DNA of 64,000 bases from Antedon mediterranea (taxonomy: Eukaryota > Animalia > Echinodermata), in NCBI RefSeq assembly GCF_964355755.1, contig NC_092673.1:14790948-14854947 (forward strand), given 5' to 3'. Every line of letters starts with the position of its first letter. The stretch's first letter is position 1. Both the position numbers and the translations under genes were made by a program. This document shows, one piece after another, positions 16,746 to 64,000 of this stretch. Below the pieces are notes generated by a model. It saw only the letters and a list, made by a program, of their open reading frames with translations. It ran no database searches and was not told the origin of the DNA.

Positions 16746-17521
16746 ATACTATATCCTTTCATCTTTATTCTCCCTATACCTACACTGGTTCTAAGTCGTA
16801 CATCTTACTATACTATTTCCTTTCATCCTCATTCTCCCTATACGTACCTACACTGGTTCTAAGTCGTACATCTTACTATACTATTTCCTTTCATCTTCAT
16901 TCTCCCTATACCTACACTGGTTCTAAGTCGTACATCTTACTATACTATTTCCTTTCATCTTCATTCTCCCTATACCTACACTGGTTCTAAGTCGTACATC
17001 TTACTATACTATTTCCTTTCATCTTTATTCTCCCTATACCTACACTGGTTCTAAGTCGTACATCTTACTATACTATTTCCTTTCATCCTCATTCTCCCTA
17101 TACCTACACTGGTTCTAAGTCGTACATCTTACTATACTATTTCCTTTCATCCTCATTCTCCCTATACCTACACTGGTTCTAAGTCGTACATCTTACTATA
17201 CTATTTCCTTTCATCTACATTCTCCCTATACCTACACTGGTTCTAAGTCGTACATCTTACTATACTATTTTCTTTCATCTTCATTCTCCCTATAACTACA
17301 CTGGTTCTAAGTCGTACATCTTACTATACTATTTCCTTTCATCTTCATTCTCCCTATACCTACACTGGTTCTAAGTCGTACATCTTACTATACTATTTCC
17401 TTTCATCTTCATTCTCCCTATACCTACACTGGTTCTAAGTCGTACATCTTACTATACTATTTCCTTTCATCTTCATTCTCCCTATACCTACACTGGTTCT
17501 AAGTCGTACATCTTACTATAC
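16745..17521. repeat. 64-bp tandem satellite, about 12 copies
   Basis: Unit TATACTATTTCCTTTCATCTTCATTCTCCCTATACCTACACTGGTTCTAAGTCGTACATCTTAC, directly abutting the 80-bp array. Confidence 0.97.
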
Positions 17522-19207: not shown

Positions 19208-20428
19208 CTACATGTCTGAACGTTCGGTGCTCTTCATTAGCATGATCAACTTAGTAACCGGTTTCTTAGCATTGATACCATCTGCAAATCTTATGTCAAC
19301 AACCCTAACAAGGTCATCTTTCCCTGGATAAACTTTACTGACTTCTGCCATTTTCCAACTACCACGTTTCTTGTTCTCACCAAGTACTATGTCACTTTCC
19401 ATTACATTCTCCATTGATTTCTGCCATTTAAGTCTTGGTGAGAGCTTATGGATACACTCCATCCATCGGTGCCAGAAACCATTCACCATAGAGTTACAAA
19501 TTTCTCTCCGTTTTCTCAAATTTCCATGGAATTCTTCACACGGTACTTTCGGACACTGTAAATCACCTCTTCCAATCAGGAAATGATTAGGAGTCAACGG
19601 CGGATGATCCATAGGCAGTGATGACTTGGCCGTCAAAGGTCGACTATTGATAAGACCAGATATCTGACAGAACACCGTCTCCCATTCAACAAATGTTATG
19701 TTGTGGAATCGTAGGAACCCTGGTCCATCGATGACTTTCTTCATATCGTCAATGTTTCCTCCTCTTGAAACAATATCTATAGTGTTCTGGTCTGATGGTA
19801 CAAAGGCAATATCTTTGATCGGGTCAAATTCAGAAGTGATCTCACGGTATGCAACATACGATCGGAAAGATTTAGATTGACCTCTCAGCCAACTGATGGC
19901 AGTCATACTGTCTGTCCAAATCTTTGAATAAACTATGTCAAACCTCAAAGCATTCTTTACAGTGAGCATCAGCCTTGAAAGCAGCAGAATTGCTTGAAGT
20001 TCTTTCCTGGGGATGCTTGATTGTTTAAGTGGTGTGAGTCTGGCTCGGGCGCACACAAACGACAAATAAGCTTCAGTTGACTCTTCATGTGACCACCTTA
20101 GCCAAACTCCGATACCCATAGCATCTTCTGAAGCATCACTTGCACCATGCAGAGATACTTTTGGTAATGGTCTTTTCCCTCTAAATGGCTCTGGAATAAG
20201 ACATCTTGGAATTTCTATGTCACTTGCTTTTTCAAGGTCTCTATTGATTTCACTGAGAATAGCACAAAGTTCACCTCTCTGGTTAAGTGGTGTATCCCAA
20301 TCAATGTTTAGTTGCCACAGTTTTTGTAACAGTGTTTTCGGTCGGACAAGGATACCGGAAAGCATACCGAATACGTCATAGTAAGAAGCGGTTTGTTTCA
20401 GAATGCTACGTTTAGTTGGGATTAGACC
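19208..20428 (-). pseudogene. BEL/Pao RNase H region fused to the integrase C-terminus (integrase core deleted)
   Basis: PTKRSIL...YDVFG, HGASDASEDA, SIPRKELQA, WTDS and NTIDIVSRG run to GPGFL, which is followed directly by ITFVEWETV...INSRPLT...LTPNHFLIG. The HHCC and DDE core is missing. Confidence 0.9.
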
Positions 20429-23380: not shown

Positions 23381-24479
23381 TGTAATTATTTCACTAGTTG
23401 TTGAAGCTGTTGTGGAATCGGTGAGAAATAATGAGGTGAACACGTTGTTGCAATATGTTGTCTTTATTAGATTTATTATTATTCAACAACTGTGTTGGGT
23501 TGTCTATAAGAACAAACAAAATACACTAAGTAGATAGTTCTGTAGTCAACAAATACTTCGAAACATATGATAATAGAGAATAGTACGACTACCCCCTCTA
23601 TAGTAATAGAAAGATGTAGACACTCGTACGCCGACTCGACTCGAAGTGATAACGTCAAGCGAGGCCTAGATATATGAACTTTAACAACAATAAAATATCT
23701 AATTTTGAAAGGTATACACAACTCAAAGACTGCCCCTGCAGACTCCTGGCTAAACATATTAATAAACGATTCTAATTAAACTCACCCAAAGGGTTCTAAA
23801 TAACAAATAAAGATGATTACACAGCATGAATATCTCACACGATACCAAATTGTATATGATTTCGTTCAGCCTGCGTATTGTACGCGCACTGGCACGCAAC
23901 TCACAAATTGAAAACAAATGACGTCATGACATTTCTATTTAATTAACCTATAGTATATTAAATATTATTATTCCACCATAAATTGTATACAAGTAGGCCT
24001 AGGCCTGCCTAGTATCTTTTCAGGAATTGACATTATTTATAGTTATTAATTATTAAATAACAATAATTATGCCTATTAACTACTATATAGGGCCTACAGT
24101 AGCTAGGCCTACATACAACTTTTTTTTTAATGTAATTGGGACCGACGGCCCCTCCCGCCCTGGGTTGGTTAGTGCCTACTAGCCGAGCTAGGATTCACTA
24201 GTCCAGACTATGCCCACCCAGTAGTAGTGTAGTAGAGTATGTTAAAGTGTCCTTGCATTGTTTATTTTGGCATTGAAACATCTTGAGAATAAGGTTCTCT
24301 TTTTTTAGACTTCTTCTTGTATCAAATAAAAGTGTGCTTGTTATGTTGTAAGAAATTATTAGGTTTTTTCTTAATTTACAGAGGAAATTTTAACAACATC
24401 AAAGTGGATGCTGGCTGTTGATGGCCATGTTGTATTAATAATAACATTGTTACGTGTGTGTGTCTGGATTAGAAATGCT

Positions 24480-46529: not shown

Positions 46530-46908
46530 AAAATTTTTGTTTACATGATTTAAGTATCAAGAAGAAGAAGAAGAAGAAGAAGAAGTGACAGTGCCTACTC
46601 TACGGGCCTGTTAAATCAGTAACCAAAAAGTTAAAATGGTTACGAAGATCTGGATTCCTGACAGTTTTTATACCGTGCGTTGTTTGGATATTACAACGAA
46701 GAAGAAGTACTGTTGAGCTCAAGGTACCTGCTCAAGACGAAATAGACAGAGGCAAAAAAAAAAAAAAATTTTAGAAAAACAACTATAACTGATTAAATAG
46801 TAAACATTTTACAGTATATTAATACAGAAATAGACTTGCAAGAAAAGAATAATATTTACAAAATTCACAGAAAAGGAGAAAAGAAAGGGGAAAAAAAACA
46901 ACACAAGA

Positions 46909-47135
46909 ATGAGCACAAACATATACATCGAAATGCCGGTCTTCCACATGGAAAGGGTTCTGAAAGTGCTACGGCTTAAAAAAAAAAGCAACACAGCGGC
47001 AACGACGGCGATGCGGATGAAAAAAACAAAAAAGACTTGTGCGAAGTGATCGACAAAATAGAGAGATTGATAGATTGCAAAGCAGAAAGTGAAAATACTT
47101 TATCTTCTAAATTTAAGAAAATGATGGTCATTTGA
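46909..47135 (+). pseudogene. Small hypothetical viral ORF frameshifted in an A-run
   Basis: MSTNIYIEMPVFHMERVLKVLRLKKK continues as QHSGNDGDADEKNKKDLCEVIDKIERLID...MMVI* if one A is removed from the run at 46978-87. AATAAA follows. Confidence 0.4.
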
Positions 47136-47228
47136 AATAAAAGGAAATTGAAATTTATATACATATATGTGTTTTTTATTTATTATTTTTTTTTTTTGTT
47201 GTTGTTATGTTTCACAAGAATCTTTCTT

Positions 47229-48419
47229 ATGGACTTGCTCAAAGAGAGACCTGTGTTGAAGTTGGGATTGCCTCAACCTGCCGTGCAGGTCAGGTGGTCA
47301 AAGATAATGACAGTCGACCCTAGACATTTCAAGTCGTACGACTACGACGACTAACACGACGACGGCGGCGGCGGTGACGAGGGCAACGATTACGGAAGGC
47401 GTTATCTGACCGGTCGTCTCTGGTTGACCAGAATCGAAGATTACACAGACTACACGACGCTTTCCCGAACTCTGCAGTCTCTGGACGATTGGAGCGTGTT
47501 TGTGAGAAGTGGCAACCCCTCTCCAACGTTCCAGTGGTACTTCGACGGAAGGCGTTACGGATCCGACAACCCTTACTTCGAGCTTCTGATGAGAATATTG
47601 AGGCATCTGTGTCTGTCGTACAACAGATCGCTACCGTTGTGTCCGAAGAACGTCGCTTGCGCAGTCGAAACCTGCCTCGACAATTTGGCCGAGACGGAAG
47701 GTGGCGTAGGCAGAAGCGGCGTGCATTTGGGCCCGCCTCCGATGTTCGTCGGGCACGACAGACGACAGATCGGATGGCTTAACGCAGACTTCTTCTCTGC
47801 CCTTTTAACCCTGGAAACCTCGCAATGACTGATGGTAGGTCTGGCCGATAGATCTTCCCGTCTCGTTTTCGAAGGATCGCAAACGACGGAAAGCATCCTG
47901 AATTTCGAGTTGGCGGAAGTGGAATTCTTCGAATTTGTCGAGGACGTCGTGGAAGACGCAACGAACCCGTTGAGAGACTGGTGGGCGTACGGAAAATATT
48001 TCAATTCCGTCTCGGCCAAATTCGTCCGTCCTCTGAGGTTACTCACCGAGGTCAAAGAAAGACACACCGCTTTCACGACGGACTCGGACGTGTTCCTGCC
48101 AAGCGTTTGGAAACGGTTGAGAGCGACCGGGACCACGTTGCCTTCTTGCATAACCGAATCGACCGTGTTGCACGAAACGGACAGGAAATGCAAGGAAAAG
48201 GTGATTTCGCTTTTTCTAGGAGAACACCTAGAGCCTGTCGAAGACGATCTCGCCGTAGACGAAAACAAGATAAGAAGGGAGAGGTTGAAACGATGCATGA
48301 ACGACGAGATCGACGAACGACCACCCAAATTTCTCGATTCGCCGTTTGTTTCAGGGAATCTACTGCTCGGCGTAAAAAATCTGGACGTGACCGTGATTTG
48401 CGGATGCGCAATACTTTGA
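47229..48419 (+). pseudogene. Hypothetical viral protein (~396 codons) with two in-frame premature stops
   Basis: Track ORFs 47148, 47424 and 47832 share one frame. The only interruptions after ATG 47229 are TAA 47352-54 and TGA 47826-28. Confidence 0.75.
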
Positions 48420-48599
48420 CAAATTGACAAACAAAAGAATACAAAAAAAAAACTGCTAAACAATATTTTTGGTTTTTTGTGTTTTTATTTCCTTTGACCA
48501 TTTCTTTTTTTTTTTTTTTTTTTTCTTCTTCTTCTTTCGAAAGTAGACTTAAAACTATTTTTTTATTTATTTATTTTTGGGGGGGGGGGGGGCATTATT

Positions 48600-50869
48600 T
48601 TACGCTTCATCTTTTGCTGTGTAGTTCCATGCCTTTCCGCAGAATCGGTGTGCGTCGCAACACAAAGCGTTCGTACATCTTACGATGAATAATCTCCTCT
48701 CCCCGTTTTCGAGATCTACGCTTCGAAAGACCGGTTCGTTTTTTCTAACCTGTCGCTCTTCTTCGGCGGTCGACACCTTCACCGTGGAACAGCAACTGCC
48801 ACTGAACAAATTCCACCCTCCGCAGAGCTGCAGCTCCTTCCGGGGCTGGTGCGTCGGAATCTTTTCCAAAGTATCTTTGATCTCCTTCAACCGATGCAAT
48901 ATGCTCGTTCGGCAGTCCCCTGCTTCCGCGTTCCAAACGATTACGCTCAAAACGTTGCTCTTGTCGAGTTGGCAAAATTTTTTCAGCTCTCGGATCAAGT
49001 GCTCGACTTCCACGGTCGGATGGATGCACAAATGCGACAGCGGATGATAGAAAACGCCTCCGTGTTTCAGGTGGTAAGGCGTCTGTCTGTAGCATCCGAG
49101 GGCGGCGCAACTCTTTTTGAATCTGTGAGAGTTCGTCTCGTTTTTGCCCTTTCGAACGACGTCCCGGACCTCGATCGCTTCGTCGTCCTTCAGTTCGTCG
49201 ACGACTCGACAAAATTCTTTTACGCAATGGTCGGCCGCCGTATTGCTGTCTCCGATCCTCAGGGCTATGTCGATCATGACCTGTTCCAGTCGAGACACGA
49301 ATCTTTCGACGCCGGGCCTCGTCATTCCTGTGGTGCTCACCCTCCCGTCGGCATGGAGACACGCATACCTTTTCTTCTTGTCCGTCAGCAGCAAGCCGCG
49401 AAGCGTCTCCCTGTGTTTGAACCTTTGAAAGCTTCCTTCACCCAAGACTCGGGCGAATTGCTCTTCCAGCTCCTGTCTCCCGCCTGGAACTATGTCCAAA
49501 AACAACGAGTCGGTGTCGCCGTACAGCACCCGAGCACCGTTTTCTTCGGCGCAATTTTTTAGCGCGTTCAGTTGTTCCTTGCACTTTTCCGTCACGTGGT
49601 TGTAAAGGCTTTTCTTGCCAGACGTGCACAGACATCCGACGCATGCGTTGGCCGCTTGTTTGTACGCGGCGGAGTTCTGGGGAGTGATGTTTTTTCCTTC
49701 TCTGGCCGACACCAGTCTTTTCATGACGGACGGAAGCAGACCTTCTCGTACTTCGGCGTCGACGAAAGAGCCGTCTTCGAGAGCCGTCGACTCGTCCACG
49801 TTTTTGTCGATGATGAACCTCGGATAGCAAGACTGAAAGTCGTACACGTCGACGTCTCTGTGAATGCCGGACACGGTGTCCAGCACCAGGCCGCCTCTGC
49901 ACGTTTCGTCTTCGTTGACGCTTCCTTTGGGCTTCGGGTCCGCATTGCTCCTCGGAAACACCACACGCTGACGCTGCGCTTCTCTGCACAGCACCGACGA
50001 AAGGACGCCGGTCGACGATCCGTTGGGGAACTTTCCCACTATTCTGGACAAGTTCGTCTCGATTTCGACCAATTTTTTCGCTTCCACCTCTGACACGTAG
50101 CGTTCCAGCACGCAAACGTCGTCGTCTAGCTTCTTCGCCGACAAGCTCGCCGCTAGCTCGTGACAAGATTCGTAACCGACGTAATCGTAGACGGAGTCGT
50201 TGTCGCCGCCCGCCGGCGACCGTACGTGTTTCAAAGTGTCTAAGCACACGGGGAACCCGTCAACGGCAAGGGGTACCTCGCACACCCGACATCTGGCGAC
50301 GATGCTGTCCTTGACCCGACCACCGTGATACACGAACACGTCGGCAGATTCGATCGACTTTGCGATTTCCGACAGCGTGTCGATCTCCGAATTTTTGCCA
50401 TGCAGTCTCTTTCCGTCGGACAGCATCGCCGAAATTATTCGACCGTTCACGTCCCACCTGAGAACTACGCACAACACCGACAGTCGCACCGGGTGAACGT
50501 TCTGTCGTTCCAAGTGGATCTGCTCGTCGTACGTCAAGCTTTCGACGTTGCCGTCTTCGTCTTCGGAGTAACTGTGCCAAGCGCATCCGTGAACCCCGAC
50601 CGCGCACTGAGCGTCCAGGTCGCCCACGGACAAGGGGAGGTTGCCGAAGAGGTTGTCGACCTTGATGCCGTTCCTTTCGTCGGTCGTGAGCCTCCTGTAC
50701 TTCTTGGCGCAAGAAATTGGATCGTCGCCTCTGCGCATGATGCATTCTCCGTCCGTTTCGTCTTCGACGTACGACGTGAATTTCACTTTCCTCGTCTTCA
50801 ACGACAGCCGTAGAGGTACAACTTTCCGTTTATCTTGGAATACTTGACACGTGTCAGATACACGAACAT
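48600..50869 (-). CDS. polB: Family B DNA polymerase (RNA/DNA-primed type), probably frameshifted near the 5' end
   Basis: Region II RGGLVLD...YDFQSCYPRFII..N, region III AYKQAANACVGCL, region I YGDTDSLF, then KKKRYA. The long frame has no upstream ATG. An ATG at 50869 in another frame gives MFVYLTRVKYSKINGKLYLYGC, a plausible true N-terminus. Confidence 0.93.
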
Positions 50870-51609
50870 TGCGACTTTTGATCGGACAAAATTCTGAAGT
50901 CTGGAACTTCGACAGACTGTCTTTTCTTTTTGTATTTCTTTTTCTCCAAAGTCGATGCGAGTTCGTGTTGACCGGTTGCTTTTAGAGACTCGACGAAAGC
51001 TTTGTAACCGGACTCGTCTTGATGCTTCCGAACGTTGTTGAGGAAAAAGTAAACGTTTCTCTGTCTGTCACCGTCGAGGAGGAAATTTGCGTATTCGGGT
51101 TCGTAAATTCTTCGGACGACCATTTGTCTGACGGTGGCCTCCAGATTTATCGTTTCAGCGAACCGGTCGATGCGTTTCAGAAGAACGTTCCTCTCTCGCA
51201 ATCGTTTCTTGTATGTTTGATCGATTTCGTAGTGCGAAAGACGGACCATCGCCGACTTGAAAGAAGAAAAAGGATGATCTTTCTCGAACGGCGTGTTGAA
51301 AGTTGTTTTCGCTCCTTTTCTCAAAGCGGCAACAAGATCGTGGTGGCCGGCGCATTTAAGAGAATCCACGAAAGCTCCGTGAGCGTGTAATTTCGGATAC
51401 CTTCGAATGTCGTCGATGAGATAATACGCCATCCGATTCTCTTTAACCCCTTTCTCTCTGTCCATACGCAGTACAAAGTTCTCGAATTCCTGCGAGTATA
51501 TTTCTCTGACGACCAATGCTTCGAGTACCGCCGACAGGTTCATGGACGTGGCGAGGAGTTTGCGATGTTTCGTCAGCAACGGTTCGCCTTCGAAGTAACT
51601 TTCTTCCAT
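50854..51609 (-). CDS. Tandem CARD-CARD (death-fold) protein
   Basis: Two ~85-aa repeats with the CARD pattern: LLTKHRKLLATSMNLSAVLEALV...AFVDSLKCAGHHDLVAAL and LLKRIDRFAETINLEATVRQMV...AFVESLKATGQHELASTL. Basic tail KKKYKKKR. Confidence 0.8.
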   Translation of the reverse strand: MEESYFEGEPLLTKHRKLLATSMNLSAVLEALVVREIYSQEFENFVLRMDREKGVKENRMAYYLIDDIRRYPKLHAHGAFVDSLKCAGHHDLVAALRKGAKTTFNTPFEKDHPFSSFKSAMVRLSHYEIDQTYKKRLRERNVLLKRIDRFAETINLEATVRQMVVRRIYEPEYANFLLDGDRQRNVYFFLNNVRKHQDESGYKAFVESLKATGQHELASTLEKKKYKKKRQSVEVPDFRILSDQKSQCSCI

Positions 51610-51799
51610 TCCTTCAGCACAGAGGAGACAAGGTTATGTCGATGTTTGAAAGCCACGAATGAAAATAAAGAAAATTATATATTATATACCAAAACATGAT
51701 AAAAAAAAAAAAAAAAAAAAAAATGTATAATATGCGAGGAAAGCATGAACAACGCTGGACCTTCCTCAAGTTGGTTACGTTCTCTCAACCCCACGGCAT

Positions 51800-51806
51800 T
51801 ATATAG
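51800..51806 (+). promoter_or_regulatory. Candidate TATA box of F-box gene copy 1
   Basis: TATATAG lies within an upstream block conserved with copy 2 (CTCAACCCC..GGCA(T)TATATAGT.GGATTT; copy 2 at 54274-80). Confidence 0.5.
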
Positions 51807-51861
51807 TAGGATTTAAATCTGTAGAATGTATAGAGTCTAGCCGAATAACAAGCATCCAAGA

Positions 51862-53229
51862 ATGGCAGGAGGACTACAAAAAAAACGAGCGAAACGTTGC
51901 AGAAAAATGAACGAAGCGACGAAGATCGATCGTTGCCGTTTGTTTGAACTGCCAACCGAATTGCTGCTGCACATTTTCTCGTTCTTGGACAACACGTCGA
52001 AGTTACAGTTCGCCGATTCGAGTCCCTTCCTGGAGAAACTGTCGGGCGACTTGGAAATCGCCGCCACCGAGGCGACCGTCGAATTGTGCACACGTGAACG
52101 TGGCGGTGCGGCGGACGAGTTTTCTATCTACCGACCCGGAAACGTGAAGATGTGCATTCACCGAAAGTTCAAACCGTTTCTCGAACTGCCTCAGATCTCG
52201 CTGCAGTTTCACTTGGCCAACCTTGTGCTGAAGAACGTGCATTTTAGAAAGGGGACATTGCGTCGCATCTTGGAAGGGATTGTTGTTAACTTAGAGTATT
52301 TGGAATTGGACTCGTGCACCGGCGACGTTTTCCACCCTTCCCCCGAACAACTCGTCCCGGAAGACGGCATACGATATTCGTCGATACATTTGAAAAACAT
52401 GAACGTGCACTTGGACGACGTCCGCGAAACCCTGCTTCCGGATGAGCGTGTCACCCAATACACCTTCTACGTGGTACTGACCGACTGCAAAGTGACGGAG
52501 AAAGATCACGAACAGAACGGTGTGCTGTTTATTACGTACGATGGACGCAGCCACCCGTCCGATGTCGGTCGTTACTTCAACCTTACCGCGGTCTCGTCCG
52601 TGTGGAAAGAAACCGAGCGGTTGAAGGTTCGCCCCTACAAAGCGGGAGGAAGAGACACGGTGTGCATGCACCGTGTCAACTTGATCAGTTTTCAGGCGGC
52701 CGTAGACCATTTCGCCGAATCCTCGAACGAAACCTCCCTAGAACTTTCGTTCGACAGCTGCCTTGAGGAACGATTCGGCATGCTCGTGGGTATGCGGTTG
52801 GTGTGCTGGGAATCTTTGACGACGTTGTTTCTGATAGATTCGGTGGCGGAGGAAGACTTTCTTGGCGTTGTCATGTCGCACCACACGAACATAAACTCGA
52901 TAACGTTAAAAAGTTGCTGCGGCGATCCTTTCGGCGAGGTGGACACGCATCCCAACACGGCACTGAGGCAATTGAACCTGATCGATATGGTCGTCGACGA
53001 GGCCGGCATGGTCAAATTCATGACACCGATCGTCGACGTCGTCAGGTTAAATTTAGAAATGTGCGTGTTCGACGAACGTCTTTTCGCAAAACTATTGCAC
53101 GAAACATCCGGCTATGGTTGGTTCGACTGCGAGTACGTCCGCGAGCCAGGCATGTTGGAACCCGTTGAGATGTTTCTTGAAACGGTCAAAGAAACCGATT
53201 TATTATGCAAAAAAATTAAAATAAAATGA
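51862..53229 (+). CDS. F-box/LRR-like protein, copy 1 (455 aa)
   Basis: F-box LFELPTELLLHIFSFLD. LRR-like units LEYLELDSC, LTTLFLIDS, INSITLKSC and LRQLNLIDM. Basic N-terminus KKRAKR. Confidence 0.85.
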   Translation: MAGGLQKKRAKRCRKMNEATKIDRCRLFELPTELLLHIFSFLDNTSKLQFADSSPFLEKLSGDLEIAATEATVELCTRERGGAADEFSIYRPGNVKMCIHRKFKPFLELPQISLQFHLANLVLKNVHFRKGTLRRILEGIVVNLEYLELDSCTGDVFHPSPEQLVPEDGIRYSSIHLKNMNVHLDDVRETLLPDERVTQYTFYVVLTDCKVTEKDHEQNGVLFITYDGRSHPSDVGRYFNLTAVSSVWKETERLKVRPYKAGGRDTVCMHRVNLISFQAAVDHFAESSNETSLELSFDSCLEERFGMLVGMRLVCWESLTTLFLIDSVAEEDFLGVVMSHHTNINSITLKSCCGDPFGEVDTHPNTALRQLNLIDMVVDEAGMVKFMTPIVDVVRLNLEMCVFDERLFAKLLHETSGYGWFDCEYVREPGMLEPVEMFLETVKETDLLCKKIKIK

Positions 53230-53393
53230 AAAACATATGTTTATAATGAATATTATTACGAGAAATGTAATCGGACCAAAAAAAAAAAAAAAATATAAAA
53301 TAAAAACAAAATATTCTGTAATCATTGATATTTATTCAAGAAAACAATTAATAAAAGAAAAAAGAAAAACCAAATGCATTCTATAAATTTTTG

Positions 53394-54176
53394 TCAATCA
53401 TGATGACTTTGAAATATTACAAATGTCTTCGTTTCATCGTCTTTGTCAGCTTCTTCACTCTTCTTTAGAAGGAACCTTTCGGAAATTCGAATGTCGTCCT
53501 GAATGTTAGATGGTGTGAACGTAGAATATTCTTGTACGAGCTCCGTTGTCATGTCGGGATGTAATTTCTTCATGACAAATCTATATTCCTTTTGCATAGC
53601 CATCTGCGTGCCTGCTATAAACGACTTTGGAAGGGGAGAGAATCCCTGTGGAACATAAAAGTTCTCTACGACATCCGACAGAGTTTTCGGTAGGATAGTG
53701 TGTTTTCTGGTCATCGCACGTTCCATACCATCCGGTACGTTACGATAGAACGTTGTCAAGACTTCCCTTTTTTCTGTCTTTGTGAAATCGTAAAACTTTA
53801 CCACTACGCCTTTGACGTATTGCAACCGGATTCCTTGCAGATACTCGTCCAATTCATCGATGAAATACGTAGGCCTACGTCGACCAGTGTATGTGAATTC
53901 TATATACGCTCCCTGGAGTAGATATGCGATCATCATTTTCAATATCGGTTTTCCCAACAAATTCGGGTGTGCTATCGTTGGATGACTGTCCATACTTTTC
54001 AAATTCTCCGGAACGTGCCATTGATGGTCATAATAAATTTCGTGCGTGGTATGGTCTGCTGTGCCAACGTCTCGATGCACATCGTAGCCTTCGATCCACA
54101 AAATTCGTTTAAACCTCTCTTCAAAGTATTCTGTTCTTTGAATTTTCTGTTTTTCCTTTTCTGTTCTTTGCAGCAT
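53394..54176 (-). CDS. Hypothetical protein (260 aa) between the F-box paralogs
   Basis: Intact intronless ATG-initiated ORF bounded by A/T-rich spacers. AATAAA downstream on the minus strand (TTTATT near 53331). No motif recognised. Confidence 0.7.
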   Translation of the reverse strand: MLQRTEKEKQKIQRTEYFEERFKRILWIEGYDVHRDVGTADHTTHEIYYDHQWHVPENLKSMDSHPTIAHPNLLGKPILKMMIAYLLQGAYIEFTYTGRRRPTYFIDELDEYLQGIRLQYVKGVVVKFYDFTKTEKREVLTTFYRNVPDGMERAMTRKHTILPKTLSDVVENFYVPQGFSPLPKSFIAGTQMAMQKEYRFVMKKLHPDMTTELVQEYSTFTPSNIQDDIRISERFLLKKSEEADKDDETKTFVIFQSHHD

Positions 54177-54347
54177 TATTTCCAGTTTTGTTCTCTTTTT
54201 ATAACCAACCTATTTTCCACAATAATAGCCCCCTCCGATGTGTGCATGTATGTGTTTTTCCTCAACCCCGGCATATATAGTGGGATTTTCAGGTTCTGAC
54301 ACATCTATAGAATGGATAGAGTCTGGCCGAATAACAAGCGCATGAGA

Positions 54348-55659
54348 ATGGCAGGAGGACTACAAAAAAAAACGAGCGAAACGTTGCAGACAAAATAACG
54401 AAGCGAAGAAGATCGTTCGTTGCCGTTTGTTTGAACTGCCAACCGAATTGTTGCTGCACATTTTCTCGTTCTTAGACAACACGTCGAAGTTACAGTGGGC
54501 CAATTCGAGTCCCTTCCTTGAGAAACTGTCGGGCGACTTGGAAATCGTTGCCACCGAGGCGGTCGTCGGATTGTGCAGACATCCACGTCGGTTTACGGCG
54601 GACGAGTTTTCTATCCACCGACCCGGAAACGTGTTGATGTGCGTTCACCGAAAGTTTCTTCTCGATCCGCAGCTGACCTCGCCGCAATTTTACTTGGCCA
54701 ACCTTGTGCTGAAGAACGTGCATTTTAGAAAGGGGACATTGCGTCGCATCTTGGAAGGGATTGTGGTTTCCCTAAAGTATTTGGAATTGGACTCTTGCAC
54801 CGGTGACGTTTTCCACCCGTCCCCTGAGCAACTCGTCCCGGAAGACGGCATACGATATTCGTCGATACATTTGAGAAACATGAACGTTCACTTGGACGAC
54901 GTCCGCGAAACCCTGCTTCCGGATGAGCGTGTCACGCAATACACCTTCTACGTGGTACTGACCGACTGCAAAGTGACGGAGGACAATCGAGCAAAGAACG
55001 GTGTGCTGTTGATTACGTACGACGGGCGCAGCAACGCTCCCGATGTCGGTCGTTACTTCAACCTGACCTCGGTCTCGTCCGTGTGGAAAGAAACCGAGCG
55101 GTTGAAGGTTCGCCCCTACAAAGCGGGAGGAAGAGACACGGTGTGCATGCACCGTGTCAACTTGATCAGTTTTCAGGCGGCCGTCGACCATTTAGCCGAA
55201 TCCTTGAACGAAACCTCCCTAGAACTTTCGTTCGACTGCTACGACGAGGAACTATGCGGCATGCTCGAGGGTCTGCGGTTGGTGTGCTGGGACTCTTTGA
55301 CGACGTTGTTTTTGATAGATTCGGTTGCGGAGAAAAATGTTCTTGCCGTTGTCATGTCGCACCACCCGAGCATGAGTGCGATAACGTTGAAACGTTGCAG
55401 CGGCGATCCTTTCGGCGAGGTGAGAACGGTCCCCAACACGGCACTGAGGCAATTGAACCTGATCGATATGGTCGTCGAAGAGGCCGGCATGGTCAAATTC
55501 ATGACACCGATCTTCGAAGTTGTCACCTTAAATTTAGTAGAGTGCAAGTTCGACAAAGAGCTTTACAAAAAACTGTTTTACGAGGCTACCGGCTGCACTT
55601 TTAGAATTAATAAATTTCCAAACTACCAACAATTCGAAACGCAGACATCAAGACGTTAA
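54348..55659 (+). CDS. F-box/LRR-like protein, copy 2; +1 frameshift in the A-run after the start
   Basis: Paralog of 51862-53229. The ATG at 54348 matches copy 1, but the run after CTAC has 9 A (54364-72) against 8 in copy 1. Confidence 0.85.
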
Positions 55660-55994
55660 CTATAAGTCTAAAGTTCCATATCATTGATATTTTTTTTATT
55701 AGGAATACTGTTTGTTGTTTGTTTTTTGTTTTTGTTTGTTATTTTTTTTTTTTAGTGGAAGAAACTTAATAAAGAAATATACGAGAGAAAAAAAAAACCA
55801 CAAAAACTCGGCTACGAAATGTTGTTTCCTATTCGTGGGGCCTGTAAACTATATTTCATATAACATAGTCCAAATCATTATAGGGATTCGGTTTAAGAGA
55901 AGAAGCACGACGTTCTTGAATATGCGTTTTTTTTTCTCAGACGACAACCATTCCTTCGGTTGCTTCTGTTATAGTCAACTTTCTTCCGTGCCCT

Positions 55995-56258
55995 TCAGAA
56001 CAGAGAGACGATGTGTTTGTAGCCTGCGTCTCGAAGTGATCCGACAAACGCCTGGTATGCATGCTCGCCATGTTTTTCTATGTCTTTAAGGATAAAGGTA
56101 ACCACTCTTTGCCTACTGCCTATAGAGAGAATTTATTCGGCTTGTCTCAATCTATACACCCGCCTTTTCACCAGACCCTTCAGCACCGGTAAAGGTTCTA
56201 ACGATTCCGCGAGTAGAACACGGTGTAAGTGCAAACGCTCTTTGTCTTCCAGCAGCAT
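55995..56258 (-). pseudogene. Single-CARD protein with a premature stop
   Basis: MLLEDKERLHLHRVLLAESLEPLPVLKGLVKRRVYRLRQAE*ILSIGSRQRVVTFILKDIEKHGEHAYQAFVGSLRDAGYKHIVSLF, read through TAA 56133-35. It aligns by eye to both CARDs of 50854-51609. Confidence 0.75.
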
Positions 56259-56359
56259 TCTGACGAATGAACTGGAATTTTTTGTACAAAAAAAAATTAC
56301 ACTATTACAACTACATCGTGGCTTCATAAACGATGGCTAAGCCTTTTATTTGTAGATTT

Positions 56360-56399
<40 letters not shown>

Positions 56400-56479
56400 T
56401 TTTTTAATTATTCAAAGTAAAAATTGTACAAAAAAAAAAAAAAAAAAAAGAAACACACAAACAAAATAAAGGTATAGTT

Positions 56480-59400
56480 ATGTTCTCTCTCAGTCTCCAG
56501 TCTCCTCATCCACCCAAAGTGGCATACTTGATCGCATCCGACTACAGAGGTTCTTCAAAGTCGACCACGAGCACAGTGTTGTTTCGTAAGATAGCGCAGA
56601 ACAAATTCCACTTTCAACTGTGGTTCAGAACGTCCATCCCGACGGAAATCAGACGAGCAGCGATCGCAGTCGAACTGGAGGACGGAAGAAAGAACTTCGG
56701 CGTCAGAATTTACGACGGCCACTTTTCGTACGACAGACATCTGTACGACAACGGCAAGACGATAGCTTTGAGCGTGATCGAATCGAAACGCCGTCATCGC
56801 ACTCGGATCGAAGTGGCCGGTGAGGAACGAAGGTTACTTCTTGCCACCGCTGCTTTCGGTCAAGGAACGATAGCGACGAGCACTTGTCTGTTTCCGTTGT
56901 GGGAGACGAAACCGTTGTTTTGCGACGAAGACGTACGCGACACCTTCTTTCAAAGGGCAACGTTTCTGAACTCGAGGATAACGGTTACCGACAGGAAGAA
57001 GAAAGTCCCACGCTCAAGCAACGAACAAAGAATGTTACGTCTGATACGTTCCGTTCCGTCGATGATGCTGGTGCGTCTGGGGCACATTCATTTAGACTAG
57101 ACAAAAAGTAGTGAGCCCTCTAGCGGTCATTTGTGATTTCTGAGATTCATCGAAGCGCGACAACATCACCCGGAAATGATGTGAATTAAAAATTTTAATA
57201 GGGTTAAACTCTTTTAACCAATTGAAAGCCTTAAATTATAGTTCCTTATGAATAATTCATGAAAATAATGAAAGCAAGGGTTGAAGAAGCATGTGACTTG
57301 GTTTTTGGAACAGGATAGCAGTTATGATCGTGTCAGGTAATCATTGAATTTGCTCTTCTTTTTGTTAAATTTTATACGGTTTTTATCAATAATAATATTG
57401 TACATTTTTACGAGACCATAAAAAAATTCCTCAATTTTTGAGTAAACGAGTGACTAAATAAAAAGTTACTATGTAATGTAAATATTCGTTTGACAAAAAA
57501 TGGGCATGTTGATATTTTCAGGTATTTTTTAAATGGCGATTGAAATAGGTAAACAAATCACATGTATAACGGTGGTTTGTGCGAAGCTGGGCCTAGCCTT
57601 GATGGTCCAACGCGTACTGTGTGTTAATCAATGCGTATAGATACACACGTAGTCGTTTAGGCCAATTTTTTACATGTTTATTTATTAATATTAGGCCCCA
57701 TTTTCATTTATTTTAATTAATGTACTGAATGTACCACACTTTACAACTCTATATAAATTAGATTTTGTACTTGTATTAAATTCAAACGTTTTATGGGATT
57801 TAAAACATTAAGCTAGGCCTTGTAGTAGGCCTTGGACCACATGTTAGGTTTTTCAGCCTAATTTATCATGCAGTATACCTCTAGCCCATCTTTCAAATAC
57901 ATATTTAAATTAAGATACTTTTTATATTTCTATATTTTTTATAGGATCTGACTCCAGAAAACATTTGCATCACTTGAAAGCGGCTATTTATGGACAGCAT
58001 GTTGACATTCAAAAAAATTTGACCAGCTCTTATTAATTAAATGTCTTTTAAATTAAAGGTTTTCATTATAATGAAATGTACAGTGACAGAAATTTAAATG
58101 ATTCTCATAATTGAGGTTTCTCATAGATTTAATATTGAAGGTAAATAAATAAAGCTGTTTGTTATTCTTGCCTTTAGAAATAAACATGTTGTTAGTACTA
58201 TATTATTAGGCCTAGGCCATTATACAAATTAAAACTAAAAAATACAATAATCATATTTAAGGCCTACACAGCAGTACCTTACTTGATTTGATTTTTTTTC
58301 AAATATTTAATTGATGAAATAAATGAGTTTGACTTTTCAATTAGTTGCCATTTTATTAGTTTCTGTGTGTTTTTATTTATATTCTTAAAATAATTGTATA
58401 CAACAACTTTAAAGTATTGCGAAGAAGTGATCAAATTAAAGTAGGCCTATTTGTATGTTATTGTCACTTAAAATTATGCAGTTAAAGTATTTGATTTTAG
58501 GGTGACAGAAGCGGTTAGGCAAGAAAAGAAATAAATTTGGGAATTTTGTTATGCGGTAAAAACAATTAAACATAATTTACCCCTAATGCATGTAAATGTA
58601 GAAAACATTGCTTATGTTAGCGCGACCGAAACTCGCTACTGGGAATAGAGCCTGCAAAAGCGACGCGTACACACCTACTCGGGCACCGGCGGAGCGCGAT
58701 CGATAGTAAATATACCCGATTTCAAATGATCATAAAATTCTTTTAAAAAATATCAACATTTTGATTTTTTGAGGATTAAAAGTAAAGATATTGAAATTTA
58801 ACATGCTATTTACAAATATGTATTTAAAAATTCGGAAACAATTTTAGCGTGATATTAAAACAAACTTTTTAGAGTTCCGCGATTTCCTACGCAGGATTTG
58901 TTTGTTTTCATTGTTAATGGGCGAATGTTACCTAAACTAGAATCGTTATAAATCTTTTAAATTTGTATTATAAGTAATTTCTTTAGTATTCTTAGTAACA
59001 TCGAATGTCTCTAATTAACTAGCAGTTATTTATACTAACTATTGTTCAATAATAAGCGTGTATGAAGTGAAAATCTATAGTAATAATGTTCTTAGTCAGT
59101 TCGTCTCGCTCGCGTGAAGTCTTCGGGTTTCCCAATACAATTTTCAGCGGTAAGATAGGCTCGCGCTAATGTTTAAATCAAAAGCGCTCTCAAAACACTT
59201 TTTGTCCAAAATTCGCAATATGACGTGAGTGTGGGAAATTCGGTTATATCTGACGTTGGGGCTGCTGCTCGACGCCGATCGCTACCCCGGATTCAAGCAG
59301 TTGTTTCAAAGGTGGCGGCCGTGCGTTCATCAGGGTTCCGAGGTAGGTCTTTACGATCCCATCAACGACGAGCTGTTCCTCGGCGACGGTCGTACCAGCC

Positions 59401-59753
59401 GAGATTCTTCGACCGGGATCGTCTACTGGACGAGCGACAATACCATACGATGCGGCGGCGGCGGCGAACACTTGCCGCCCGAGATCATGGAAGCTTCGTG
59501 CAAAGAGGCGTCGTTGATGGCTCCGCTCTCCATACCGCCTTTCGTAAAGTTTCACCAAAGCGGCAGCTTTGATCCGGATTCGCGTCTGGTGGCGTACGGT
59601 CCGACTAGGGAAATGGAGGAGAAGTTGTTCGACGTCGTGACGGAGACGACTTACTTCGATGTGTTTTCCTACGCCGACGTCTGCCGGGTGTCGACTGCGG
59701 CGGCGGCTGCTTGCAACGTGATCTGTTCGACGATCACCCTGACGAACTTTTGA
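56480..59753 (+). pseudogene. Hypothetical viral gene split by a transposon (56480-57082 plus 59236-59753)
   Basis: CpG-rich coding sequence on both sides of an AT-rich insert. Removing 57083-59235 joins ...SVDDAGASG to EIRLYLTLGLLLDADRY... in frame. One further frameshift near 56990 is needed to link to the 56480 start. Confidence 0.6.
57083..59233. mobile_element. Non-autonomous CAC-terminated DNA transposon (CMC/EnSpm-like) with bipartite asymmetric ends
   Basis: Left end CACATTC-N11-ACAAAAAGT, right end (reverse complement) CACACTC-N21-ACAAAAAGT. 2-bp TSD GG. Host-like AT-rich interior with AGGCCT motifs. Confidence 0.75.
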
Positions 59754-60376
59754 TACTCTTGAGAAAGATTCTTGGAGATGCGTTTGTGATTGACAGAAGT
59801 TGTGAGTTTGTTCTTGTTCAACGTGTAAATCTGAAACTGTCTCATCATTTGACAAAGATCGCCGGCCAGTCCGTTTGACACCAGCATCGAAACAAACTCG
59901 TTTTTATCCATACCGAGACTCTTGTTGAGTTTTTGGTCCAGATAATGGAAGGTGTCGTCGAGCAGTTGCTTGAACCATATAGCGACGCCGTAATAGCTTT
60001 CAATCCCGTTGATCGTGCGTTTGTTTCTCAACTCGCTCAAGTCCACGCTCACTATCGACGCGTACGTTTCGGCCAATATTTCCAAGTCGGTAGGCTCGTC
60101 TTCGGAAGCGGATCGACTGCCAGCCCCGGGGCATCGCTCAAGGTGGTCACGAAGGCCGTCACGTTCTTCGATCGCTTTTTCGAGCTCGTTCCGGAGGTCT
60201 TCGACGACCTTGTGCAACCTGCCGTTCTCGTCGTTGCTGGTCCGCAGTTGCTCGAGCGTTTTTGCATGTTTGCGACTCAACTCTTGAAAGCGGGCGAACC
60301 CGGTGTCTGTGGGAGTGGCATTCTGCCCACTGCTTTCAGGAAAAGGCAATCGATTTAACTGAACCCTCAGAGTCAT
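59669..60376 (-). CDS. Hypothetical viral protein with an N-terminal coiled coil (235 aa)
   Basis: ATG-initiated after an A-rich spacer. Heptad-like stretch LEQLRTSNDENGRLHKVVEDLRNELEKAIEERDGL. Its 3' end overlaps the convergent gene. Confidence 0.7.
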   Translation of the reverse strand: MTLRVQLNRLPFPESSGQNATPTDTGFARFQELSRKHAKTLEQLRTSNDENGRLHKVVEDLRNELEKAIEERDGLRDHLERCPGAGSRSASEDEPTDLEILAETYASIVSVDLSELRNKRTINGIESYYGVAIWFKQLLDDTFHYLDQKLNKSLGMDKNEFVSMLVSNGLAGDLCQMMRQFQIYTLNKNKLTTSVNHKRISKNLSQEYQKFVRVIVEQITLQAAAAAVDTRQTSA

Positions 60377-60524
60377 AATAGTGTGAGGTAATGTTGTTGT
60401 TGGGAGGTTTTTTTTTTGTTTTTTTTTTTAGGGGTGGTTTTTAAGGCTAATATTGTTATCGTATTTCTTATTTGTATCTTTTTTTTTGGTTCTCCGTTTT
60501 GATTTTTTTTTGTTTTTGTTGCAA

Positions 60525-60914
60525 ATGCAAATGCAAATGGAAAGTTGCGTGTACAGATACTTTTCGGAAAACTACAGGGTAGACGACTTTGTAGAAGAAG
60601 ACGTCGATCGTATGGTTTCAAGAGCCACCGATCGTTACGTCGAATGCGTGGACAAACTGAAGGTGTCTCTGACGAGTTTGAGATCGCAGAAAGAGGATGC
60701 TGCCGCAGCTGCTGCCACCGGCGACGTGGTCACTCTCATGACCGCCTCAAACAGAGACGTACTCTCGAGAAGTGGCAGCGATCGCCACGGACCGATTCCG
60801 CCGGCACTCGATCCGTCTGCGGAGATCGTTCCGAGTTGGTTCGAAAATTTTGAGAACGCCGTGCGAGGGAAGAAGACCTGGTTCAGCGTCAACTACAACC
60901 GGAGACCACGATAA
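60525..60914 (+). CDS. Hypothetical viral protein (~129 aa)
   Basis: ATG cluster at 60525/31/37, CpG-rich codons, and AATAAA at about 60944. Confidence 0.65.
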   Translation: MQMQMESCVYRYFSENYRVDDFVEEDVDRMVSRATDRYVECVDKLKVSLTSLRSQKEDAAAAAATGDVVTLMTASNRDVLSRSGSDRHGPIPPALDPSAEIVPSWFENFENAVRGKKTWFSVNYNRRPR

Positions 60915-61025
60915 GTGTTTGTTTTTTTGGGGGAGAAAAACCCAATAAAATGGCGGGGTGAAAAAAAAAAACAAAAAACGAAAAATAGTTTATTTATTTT
61001 TTTTATTTTTGCAAAAAAAAATTAA

Positions 61026-63097
61026 TCATTTTCGGGGACGAAATTGTTTTCGATAGCGGTTATTTTCTTTGCGTGCCTCCCAGTAGTTGTAGTTGTAATA
61101 ATTTTCTGGGACAGAGTAGCCTGCGTCTACCGTCGTCGTTTTCGAATGGATCGGCGTTGGGGATCGAGGAGCAAGATGTTGTCGATTGAGGTCCTTGGCG
61201 GAGGCGGCTCGGCTTTCCAAAAGATCGGCGAGTTTCTCGAGAGTGCTACTCTCGTCGGCTTTCTGTCTCTTGTAGGGACGCTCATCCCTTTGCTCCGTTT
61301 CGTGTTCTCTTTTGTTGTCGGAACCGTAATATCTGCCTCTTTTCCGGGGAGAGAGGGAAGAGTCCCTTCGTCGTTCGCCGCTTATGCGGCTGTGTCTTCT
61401 CTTCCTCGAACGAAAACATCAAAAACAACATAATATAGCTATTAACAAGTCATTAAGACGGGTTACTAAATTGTGTGTTGAAGGCGATTTCACTGACAGG
61501 CTTAAGATTCTAAATTTACCAGATATGGTTCAAAGAATGAAATTTCATAGTATAATTTTTGTAGTTAAGTGTTTGCATAATTTAATTGATTTTGATATAT
61601 TTTAATACCTTACAATTAATTCTCGGTATCCAGAGTCCCTCACCTTTAAACACATGTATGCTAGAACTAATGCATTTAAATACTCCCTGTTTGTTAATTT
61701 CCCTCGAATATGGGAATGTATCCCGCATGAAGTTCGTAACAAAGTCCTGTTTAACTTTGGGGGGTTTAGAAGGGATTTGAAAAAATGTATTACTGATATC
61801 GAATTCATCTAGACTATCATTGTGTTTTTATGTCTATTGCGTTTTTCGTACTATTAGTTGGGAAAGCCACTCGACAGTGCAGTTCTTTTGAATTGATCCA
61901 CTTTTGGTTACCCGCAGGTGCTGATAGTACTTTTGTTCTGTTTTGTTGAATGATGCCGTACCTTGTTTATGATTTTTGTATGTTACCTGGAAATTGAATA
62001 AAATAAAAAAATAAAAAATAAAATAACGACCTCGCTCGTTTTCGCCGAGTCGCTCTTCGACGCTTTTGAAGTAATCTTTGCAAACGCTGACAGCGTTCTC
62101 GTTGGTTTTCGCCAGCAAGTTTCTGTGAACGTCCAGTATCTGTTTAATCGAGGAGGCTCCGGTGATGTGAACGTCTTCTTGCATCTTCGGAAATCGCTGC
62201 TTTAAAAGATTGCTTATTTGGTTCTTGAAAGCCCTGTCCGACGTGGCGTCGTCGACGAGTTCGTTGGCGGCCCTGAACGTAGCCGCCACGTCCACTTCCA
62301 CGTGCTCGTTTTCGTTCGGGGCCGTCAACTTTTCGGTGAACTCTTCGAAGTCGCTCATCCTTTTCTTGTACTCCGGCCCCTGTTTGTCCTGCGCGATCTT
62401 GTGTACGTTCAGAATGAAATCTCCGAACTGAACCCTCCAGAGATCCAACTTTTCTTTGAACGTGTCTAGCTTCTGTTTGTTGCACTCGTCCTTGCTCTTG
62501 AGCATACACAGTATGGTGTTGAGATTGTCCTGCGAAACGGTGCTTGCAAGTTTTTCGATCGTCTCCACCTTTTTGCAGAATGTTCTCGTCAGACGCCATC
62601 ACGTTCTCCGCAGGCCCGTTTTCTGCTCCACGCTTATACCCGAATCTCTCTCTGGCAACTCTAAGCGCCATTTCTTCGTCATCGCAGTAAACGGCCACCG
62701 TTCCTTTCCTCTGGCCTGTCTCGACCAGAGAAACTTCTACGCACTTTGTGTGATCGGCTCGCCTGTAGCTGAGAGACAGGCAGTTCAGATTCCGAGAGAA
62801 CGGGCTGTTGAGAAAGTTCTCGTCCTCGATCTCCAACAGGACGGCGACGGCCCCGCCGTTCTCCGTGTTGGATCCGGGGTACGTGCGATCTCTCCACCAT
62901 TTCCGGACGGTGCCGATGCCGTCCGGGGAATGCACGCCTTTGCCGTTCTCGCGTCCCTTCACGTGCTTCCAACGAACCGGGAGCTTCTCGAGATTCCATC
63001 GTTTCACCACGTCGGGAGTCACGTCGTACTCTTCGTCCCGGGCCTCGAGTTTGACGTCCGTAACCACGTAGCCGACCGCGAACCTCTTTATCTTCAT
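61026..63097 (-). pseudogene. Herpes-type capsid maturation protease (assemblin)-scaffold precursor, disrupted by a LINE and a +1 frameshift
   Basis: AVGYVV, LPVRWKH (His), IGTV, CLSLSY (Ser) and EVSLVETGQRKGTVAVY (cf. HCMV LPLNINH, GLSLSS, HVALCSVGRRRGTLAVY). Removing one A at 62570-74 and bases 61414-62029 gives a 484-aa ORF. Confidence 0.85.
61414..62024 (+). mobile_element. 5'-truncated CR1/L2-like LINE inserted in the scaffold gene
   Basis: RT C-terminal remnants (RRVTKL...DRLKILNLP; RTNAFKYSLF...RIWECIP), an (AAAT)n/A-rich tail, and a 5-bp TSD AACGA (61409-13 and 62025-29). Confidence 0.85.
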
Positions 63098-63612
63098 CGC
63101 AGCCTCTTCAACTCCTTCTTTGCGTTCTTCTTTGCGTTCTTCTTTCTCCTGACGTATTTCATCGCTAAGGTACACCTTTCGGCTTTAAGGCGAGCGAGAT
63201 CCTCTTTGTCGTCTTCTTCTATCCTGCAAGGTCTGATGCTCAACGTTTTCTCCTTCAGGTCCACCAACGCCGTAATGTTTTCCGACATGCCGATGAGTAT
63301 CACAGTTAACCAGTCTATGTGTCTGACGTCGACGAACACCACTCCGTCTGCATGTTTCTTGTCGTCGACGATCGACCTGCAGAAAGACGACATGCGGCAA
63401 GCTATCAACGCCACGGTGGGATGGAGATCGGACCTCTGGAACGAAGAATGGTCGTTTGGGATTCCTAATCCGGCTATCTCGCAATTGCACCGAATGCCGC
63501 GAGAGAAGTGCACGGCTCCTGCAAGGAGAGAACAGTCGATGCAACAGCGCATGCCCCCTCGACACGAATCCAACAAAATCCGTAATTCAAGTTCCGATAT
63601 GGTACTCTCCAT
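63094..63612 (-). CDS. Hypothetical Cys-rich viral protein (172 aa) with a basic C-terminus
   Basis: ATG 63612 (MESTISELEL...). CCIDC and CNC motifs. Its TGA overlaps the protease ATG (ATGA, 63094-97). Confidence 0.7.
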   Translation of the reverse strand: MESTISELELRILLDSCRGGMRCCIDCSLLAGAVHFSRGIRCNCEIAGLGIPNDHSSFQRSDLHPTVALIACRMSSFCRSIVDDKKHADGVVFVDVRHIDWLTVILIGMSENITALVDLKEKTLSIRPCRIEEDDKEDLARLKAERCTLAMKYVRRKKNAKKNAKKELKRLR

Positions 63613-63634
63613 CGTGTGAAATTTTGTTTTTTTA

Positions 63635-63722
63635 CGTGTGTGTGCGGGTGTGTTTGTGTGTGCAGGGTGTGTTCGTGCGTGCAGGGTGTGTTTGTGTGGG
63701 TGTGGTGTGAGTGGGTGCCTGC

Positions 63723-63761
<39 letters not shown>
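63635..63761. repeat. (GT)-rich and (TA)n microsatellites upstream of the 63612 gene
   Basis: Directly visible GTGT runs and an approximately 36-bp (TA)n. A similar (TA)n lies at 56362-56394. Confidence 0.9.
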
Positions 63762-63763
<2 letters not shown>

Positions 63764-64000
63764 GTGTGCATATGAATTTTAAAGATTATGTTAGTAATTA
63801 ATATTTTTCGAAAAAAAAAATAAATAAACAGAAATTAATACAACAACAAAAAACGAGCCAAAGTTTCTTTGATTTTTATTCATTTATTTATTTTATATAA
63901 GTCTAATAATATTAATAGACTAAAATCATAGCATGCAATTACATTTTTTTTTTTTTTTTTTAGGTTTTCTTTCGTTGGGTGTTTTCATAGATAATTTCTG

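Follow-up and report, generated by a model that had tools for sequence, protein, structure and literature searches.

The locus analysed here raises the question of how a DNA polymerase gene with an intact polymerase site, eroded proofreading motifs and a Cys-rich tail is to be understood: as an ordinary gene in decay, or as a real variant of the family-B DNA polymerases (PolB) with an ancestry and a role of its own. The gene lies in the window, which is the whole 64,000-nucleotide stretch of Antedon mediterranea DNA that was analysed. The features of the window, and those of the locus of one distant relative, are collected in the table.

Features of the window and of locus L083, which holds the distant polymerase P0129 (positions are those of the window unless L083 is named)
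Feature	Position	Strand	Remarks
Whole element, intronless genes	46600..64000	.	GC 45-57%, CpG o/e 1.2-1.7; left edge approximate; continues past the window's right end
Compact family-B DNA polymerase gene (~755 codons)	48600..50869	-	Frame broken near 50,805 in the window copy
C-terminal domain, one conserved four-Cys set	48639..48824	-	Putative single metal site, family-specific
Motif C, YGDTDS	49506..49523	-	Intact
Motif B, KxxxNxxVG	49632..49661	-	Lys, Asn and Gly kept; Tyr to Val
Motif A, DxxSxYP	49821..49841	-	Catalytic Asp and steric-gate Tyr kept; conserved Leu to Cys (Tyr or Ala in homologues)
ExoII position	50307..50330	-	Asn and Asp absent; profile alignment
ExoI position	50451..50483	-	Lacks the catalytic Asp and Glu (window: V and R); profile alignment
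Out-of-frame N-terminal piece	50798..50869	-	Opens with the true ATG and runs to a stop; homologue of the P0001 N-terminus
CARD-domain gene	50854..51609	-	Overlaps the polymerase start; Pfam CARD E=3e-6; one CARD above cut-off, second weaker
Two duplicated F-box-like genes around an unknown ORF	51862..55659	+	88% identical over 1,343 nt; start of second copy frame-broken
Host-repeat insertion (2.2 kb) splitting a viral ORF	57078..59233	.	Absent in contigs of X1, X5 and X8
Herpes-type capsid protease, then likely scaffold region	61834..63097	-	Frame break between the two; weak profile matches
Two small secreted-looking ORFs	L083:3853-4847	-	One with a faint C1q match, E=0.025
1,467-aa ORF with AAA+ P-loop	L083:5614-10017	-	Head-to-head overlap with the polymerase; AAA_5 E=0.001, MCM E=0.086

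The polymerase gene, its family and its surroundings

The minus-strand ORF of 48,600-50,738 encodes 712 amino acids from an internal ATG and contains every motif named in the preliminary description. A 23-codon piece beginning at the ATG at 50,869 lies in a different frame and runs into a stop at about 50,800. This piece aligns with the start of P0001, an intact 738-aa relative that is 46% identical to the window polymerase over 730 columns, and therefore the length of about 755 codons and the frameshift given in the preliminary description are correct. The reads, which it had proposed to check near 50800, gave contigs with an indel relative to the window at the break site (~50,805) in X1, X5 and X8 (three of the four public runs compared) and a joint there in X9, so the break is a property of the window's copy or of its assembly. 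Eleven public runs of four organisms contain the stretch, and five of them share half of its words or more. The window polymerase matched Pfam DNA_pol_B (E=1.3e-14) and no exonuclease family in Pfam.

The family was listed from the best 150 of 508 matches in a full-library search. In a separate search P0001 was the sole close match among 122; the other matches listed there were at most 35% identical, over part of the protein, and the named ones among these weaker matches were archaeal or bacterial. Among the matches listed, the named family members are five proteins of the feather star Anneissia japonica, whose annotations read Pol delta-like or Pol II-like. Two members, P0122 and P0275, are fragments from the N-terminus, and two distant ones, P0124 (815 aa) and P0129 (841 aa), share about 25% identity with P0001. 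P0129, which was outside the profile's input, scored 261 bits, and the best outsider scored 138. The window polymerase, P0001, P0124 and P0129 formed a single clade in the 36-row tree (support 100/99), with V or I at the motif-B Tyr, an altered motif-A Leu and a C-terminal four-Cys domain in common. Because they are common to these four polymerases, the odd features of the window polymerase are inherited family traits and not decay. The window's copy is a decayed relic, and it represents a real PolB variant nonetheless.

The odd motifs recur in homologues, and an explanation by assembly error alone was therefore rejected. A host Pol delta gene was likewise rejected: the polymerase gene is intronless, stands in a viral context and falls outside the delta clade. 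The IMG/VR scans and the first metagenome scan returned no family members, and a further scan returned generic PolBs only. No account of this polymerase family was found in a literature search whose coverage stopped short of subscription papers, and the variant is apparently undescribed. A published set of divergent polymerases, embedded like the window's in invertebrate hosts, may include the family; its text neither states size or exonuclease state nor mentions a crinoid. Two further polymerases were observed. P0126, an 814-aa PolB with Ile for the motif-B Tyr and a Cys-rich tail, branches as sister to the family in the quick tree (support 91), where it sits at the end of a long branch. A diverged second polymerase copy with nearly equal spacing was observed over window 49,343-50,622 in contig record 11 of X8, and X5 shows an identical joint; it is likely another member of the same family, from a second virus lineage that these animals also carry.

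The DNA to the left of ~46,600 is about 33% GC, CpG-poorer and repeat-rich, with fibrinogen-domain exons and a Pao retrotransposon; no contig spanning the left edge of the element was shown. A host satellite occupies 10,942-17,521 (72.6 copies of an 80-nt unit with 98% matches, then 12 copies of a 64-nt unit), and a Pao/BEL retrotransposon with long ORFs and one interrupting stop occupies 19,208-23,482 on the minus strand.

Within the element, matches to the protease were weak (Pfam Herpes_ORF28 E=3e-5, 23.8 bits against a cut-off of 40; assemblin S21 E=0.052). A protease followed by a scaffold is the herpes layout (PMC11565193). The IMG/VR scan with the protease gave no locus, and PDB sequences, PHROGs and the ESM Atlas gave no matches to it. 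No terminase, HK97 major capsid protein, portal or triplex was recognised in the window, past the end of which the element runs, and no primase or helicase gene was seen in the window. Because a protease-scaffold-like gene, identified by weak profile matches, lies 12 kb from the polymerase, the element is likely a herpes-like animal virus embedded in the genome. Its CARD gene, from which ~550 nt are missing internally in the X8 and X9 contigs (organisms B and C), is a candidate apoptosis or inflammasome decoy. The copy in the window is integrated and decaying, since contigs of X1, X5 and X8 skip the host repeat and several genes are frame-broken. In these three runs the depths of polymerase and protease are of the same order and far below those of the flanking repeats, which fits one element, contig depth not being equal to copy number. 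A second host-like, high-depth segment was observed at 60,930-62,030, and one X8 contig matches both of its flanks.

Polymerase site, exonuclease region and cysteine tail

Motifs A, B and C and the full N-terminal/exonuclease/palm/fingers/thumb fold place the family among the PolBs. The YGDTDS and the region II Asp, described at first as intact, are indeed kept as motif C and the catalytic Asp of motif A. The region III Tyr had been read as Val, and this position is V or I in the window and in 8/8 readable homologues (of 10). Elsewhere the position holds Y or F, namely in 28/28 Pol alpha, 6/6 delta and 10/10 herpes polymerases and in 377/382 other PolBs read (of 406). The motif-A Leu is replaced in the window and in 8/8 homologues. 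Members that share only about 25% of their residues still have both catalytic Asp motifs, the Lys and Asn of motif B, and KK[RK]Y. Between the window polymerase and P0001, identity is 62% in palm and fingers, 38% in the exonuclease and 32% in the thumb. Since palm and fingers are far better conserved than exonuclease and thumb, the catalytic core appears to have been kept by selection.

From their motif positions, the changed residues would correspond to L415 (motif A) and Y567 (motif B) of the RB69 polymerase. RB69 Y567A has a mutator effect. It leaves catalysis intact (PMC3792054), the L561A/S565G/Y567A triple mutant served to capture mismatches, and L415A/G lowers base selectivity several hundred fold (both PMC3799440).

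A global profile alignment that included 119 prokaryotic PolBs places ExoI 'SFDIE' on YLSIR of P0001 and on CVVLR of the window polymerase, and the ExoII Asp is lost in the family. The catalytic exonuclease acids are missing in all family members that cover the region, and none of the members matched a Pfam exonuclease family. The reported erosion of ExoI DxE and ExoII NxxxFD was thereby borne out; the ExoI DxE and ExoII Asp of the orthoherpes/delta type are not conserved in this family. Modelling of the exonuclease site had also been proposed. The AlphaFold model of P0001 (pLDDT 75, pTM 0.75; single-sequence AlphaFold gave pLDDT 34) keeps a DEDD-exonuclease fold at about residues 136-285, with Z 7-9.6 to DEDD nucleases, and the catalytic acids are absent from it by alignment. 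When the half with the N-terminal and exonuclease regions was compared locally by profile, every group stayed under 1%; the exonuclease positions therefore rest on the global alignment and the model, and the exact columns are less certain for distant members. D214 of P0001 is invariant in the four full-length members and aligned to the conserved Asp between ExoII and ExoIII, and we take it as structural. The Pol alpha-type state, an inactivated exonuclease with an intact polymerase site, appears to be present in the family.

All full-length family members end in a four-Cys domain. Of the Cys-rich C-terminus first described, a conserved four-Cys set was found, but it is one set and not two zinc fingers. 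By hhalign, the family tail matched neither the C-terminal domain of Pol alpha (0.55%) nor that of delta (0.09%). Five members searched at E up to 10 gave zero Pfam matches to PF08996 (two-zinc C-terminal domain) and PF12254 (N-terminal region).

Possible roles

With slightly less than even confidence, we propose that the family is a compact (~740-840 aa) PolB of a herpes-like virus, active and error-prone, which extends primers for a viral primase-helicase while a second polymerase copies the bulk. Such an enzyme would be like Pol alpha by function and not by descent. Activity in the live virus is suggested by the intact polymerase motifs and by the palm and fingers, which are the best conserved parts. 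Missing exonuclease acids together with changed L415/Y567 positions would give low fidelity by analogy to the RB69 mutants. A helper role is suggested by the dead exonuclease, by the divergent thumb and by one relative that lies head-to-head with a large AAA+ ORF; the thumb divergence may be overstated, because the thumb is a low-confidence part of the P0001 model. Low fidelity is predicted because the proofreading residues are missing, and low fidelity or an accessory role, as anticipated in the preliminary description, are both reasonable predictions from sequence and analogy. The known exonuclease-dead PolBs are Pol alpha and zeta (PMC7544198).

Several observations weigh against this proposal. 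The AAA+ neighbour comes from one locus of one examined and showed no primase motif, and the window polymerase has no such neighbour. The only other PolB-like contig (X5, X8) resembles another member of the same family. In P0129 the motif-C Tyr is replaced by G. Among the near-identical copies (40 of 70 rows listed), 15/35 differences are synonymous (0.43, with 0.35 expected for unselected transitions); there is no clear sign of present purifying selection, and the synonymous count is uninformative. The locus of P0129 is an intronless cluster of 55% GC near a deoxynucleoside kinase, and no capsid gene was recognised in it. MCM-type helicases are reported absent from eukaryotic viruses (PMC4889955). 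The small secreted-looking ORFs of this locus, one with the faint C1q match, suggest that P0129's virus has an animal host.

It is rather unlikely, though a serious possibility, that the family is instead the sole replicative polymerase of its virus, doing without proofreading by depending on host mismatch repair or by tolerating a high mutation rate. The search for a second PolB in the element agrees with such a role, as none was found in the 17 kb of the element seen (the window ends inside it) or in 17.5 kb of L083, but these stretches are only a small part of each virus. Herpesvirales polymerases (UL30; alloherpes ORF57; malacoherpes) are like the family in that a PolB stands beside a herpes-type protease-scaffold-like gene. 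In contrast, they are larger (~940-1,620 aa in the orthoherpes-like and alloherpes references), and those inspected keep the ExoI motif intact, malacoherpes lying outside the sample. A genome of herpes size copied without proofreading by a loosened active site would also be costly.

Ancestry and meaning of the family

The careful tree comprised 36 of 76 aligned rows and 344 columns; the motif filter missed two rows, P0128 and P0194. Four IMG/VR loci were labelled orthoherpes in this analysis, from their motifs and genome lengths. The family fell outside crown Pol alpha (99/100), delta+NCLDV+orthoherpes (100/97) and alloherpes (100/100) in trees sampled without zeta, epsilon, pox, baculo, nima, mirusvirus and malacoherpes polymerases. 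The nesting within herpes clades set beforehand as refuting was not found: the family lies outside the sampled orthoherpes and alloherpes clades, and the exonuclease acids are absent. With long branches, AU p values for sisterhood were 0.30 for alloherpes, 0.056 for orthoherpes and 0.11 for delta+NCLDV+orthoherpes, so none of these groupings was rejected. The claim of an ancestry different from herpes polymerases holds in so far as the family is outside the sampled clades, but these values (0.30 and 0.056) leave it unproved. Herpes polymerases themselves fall in two clades (PMC7544198).

An ancient capture from eukaryotic Pol alpha, which would account for the dead exonuclease and the Cys tail and is compatible with the primer-extender role, is improbable. 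The 'alpha-like' motifs of the preliminary description are mostly generic (GGxV[LFV][DE] occurs in 172/382 other PolBs read, and the TxxKKRY spacing in 32/382 of these and in 0/28 Pol alphas); the one alpha-like feature is the Cys that follows the motif-B Gly, present in 26/28 Pol alphas and in the crinoid branch of the family and missing from the distant members P0124 and P0129. The scanned eukaryotic matches of the single-sequence search were all Pol alpha and none delta (34 of 150 scanned), with VIA-align only certain Pol alpha chains gave a match reaching as far as residue 701, and grouping with all Pol alpha was not rejected by the AU test (p=0.195). Against these stand the position outside crown alpha, the unmatched tail, and the AU rejection of grouping with animal alpha (p=0.0006) and opisthokont alpha (p=4e-5; control 0.075). 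The value for animal Pol alpha (p=0.0006) rejects capture from that source in particular.

Profile comparisons also place other polymerases above alpha. Among single-sequence PDB matches archaeal B3 headed the ranking, yeast Pol alpha came further down and HSV stood at the bottom. Family-profile bits were 125 for B3, 109 for human delta, 103 for yeast delta, 98 for yeast alpha, 83 for human alpha and 81 for HSV, and hhalign of the core gave archaeal B3 306, Pol II 264, alpha 239, delta 239 and alloherpes 76, the weakest. With B3 and Pol II profiles outscoring alpha, the tail unmatched and nesting with animal alpha rejected, the Pol alpha identity first suggested was not supported. Structure comparison of the P0001 model gave Z 20.9 for delta, 20.6 for KOD, 19.9 for Pol II and 19.0 for alpha, a ranking that is biased because archaeal and bacterial PolBs were abundant in the alignment used to build the model. 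The catalytic subunit of Pol alpha is like the family in its dead exonuclease, intact polymerase motifs and Cys-containing tail. In contrast, the family is about half as long, lacks the N-terminal region, has one short four-Cys domain without a profile match, has the motif-A Leu and motif-B Tyr replaced and branches outside crown alpha. Archaeal B3 and bacterial Pol II, which give the best profile and structure scores, are like the family in size (median 780 aa among the fetched prokaryotic matches) and domain order, but they proofread and have no Cys tail, whereas the family is in an animal virus. Four metagenomic PolBs of 770-924 aa (P0141, P0153, P0232 and P0245) were also observed, with Cys tails and without a recognised exonuclease motif; they group with Pol alpha (95 SH-aLRT, quick tree) and are candidate truly alpha-derived compact polymerases.

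A repair, translesion or recombination polymerase of the Pol II or Pol zeta type, acting away from the fork, is very doubtful. Bacterial Pol II was the maximum-likelihood sister in 600/1,000 bootstraps, a Pol II and phage group appeared in most others, and the quick tree put the wider group with Pol II and phage PolBs at 99 SH-aLRT, but the sister support was weak (60/47) and every branch is long. Size and domain order are Pol II-like (Z 19.9, rmsd 4.5, 532 aligned) and a loosened pocket would suit lesion bypass; however, Pol II keeps its exonuclease, and the structure scores of delta, KOD and Pol II are tied, with alpha within 2.

The P0001 model also aligns end to end with a 747-residue HSV-1 helicase-primase chain (Z 11.4, rmsd 5.5, 460 aligned), which we take from its length to be UL8. 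Active PolBs score above this (Z 17-19), and in BFVD the herpes helicase-primase subunit models came at ranks 42, 45 and 48, below active PolBs. Orthoherpes UL8 is like the family in its ~750 aa, PolB fold, lack of exonuclease motifs and herpes context, and differs in having no polymerase motifs, which the family keeps. It is quite unlikely, though conceivable, that the family is the living, predicted-active counterpart of the UL8 ancestor, namely a ~750-aa exonuclease-dead second PolB serving the primase-helicase in a new invertebrate herpes-like lineage. Least probable is a near-inactive scaffold heading to a UL8-like state with its motifs as remnants, for although the 750-aa UL8 of HSV-1 is an inactivated PolB that has no exonuclease motifs (PMC8187027) and two otherwise near-invariant active-site residues are altered in the family, the catalytic Asp motifs, motif-B Lys/Asn and KK[RK]Y, which UL8 lost, persist at ~25% identity.

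The family has lost the proofreading residues and loosened two fidelity residues while keeping the catalysis motifs across 25%-identical members. The replicative polymerases of large DNA viruses are, as a rule, assumed to have proofreading. The family would be either an error-prone replicase of a large animal virus or a viral primer-extender replacing Pol alpha. It would mark a herpes-like virus lineage in feather stars and other hosts, and its feather-star members are mis-annotated as 'Pol delta-like' host genes. The family also bears on the origin of UL8, and, if the UL8-ancestor reading is true, would show the role of UL8 before catalysis was lost.
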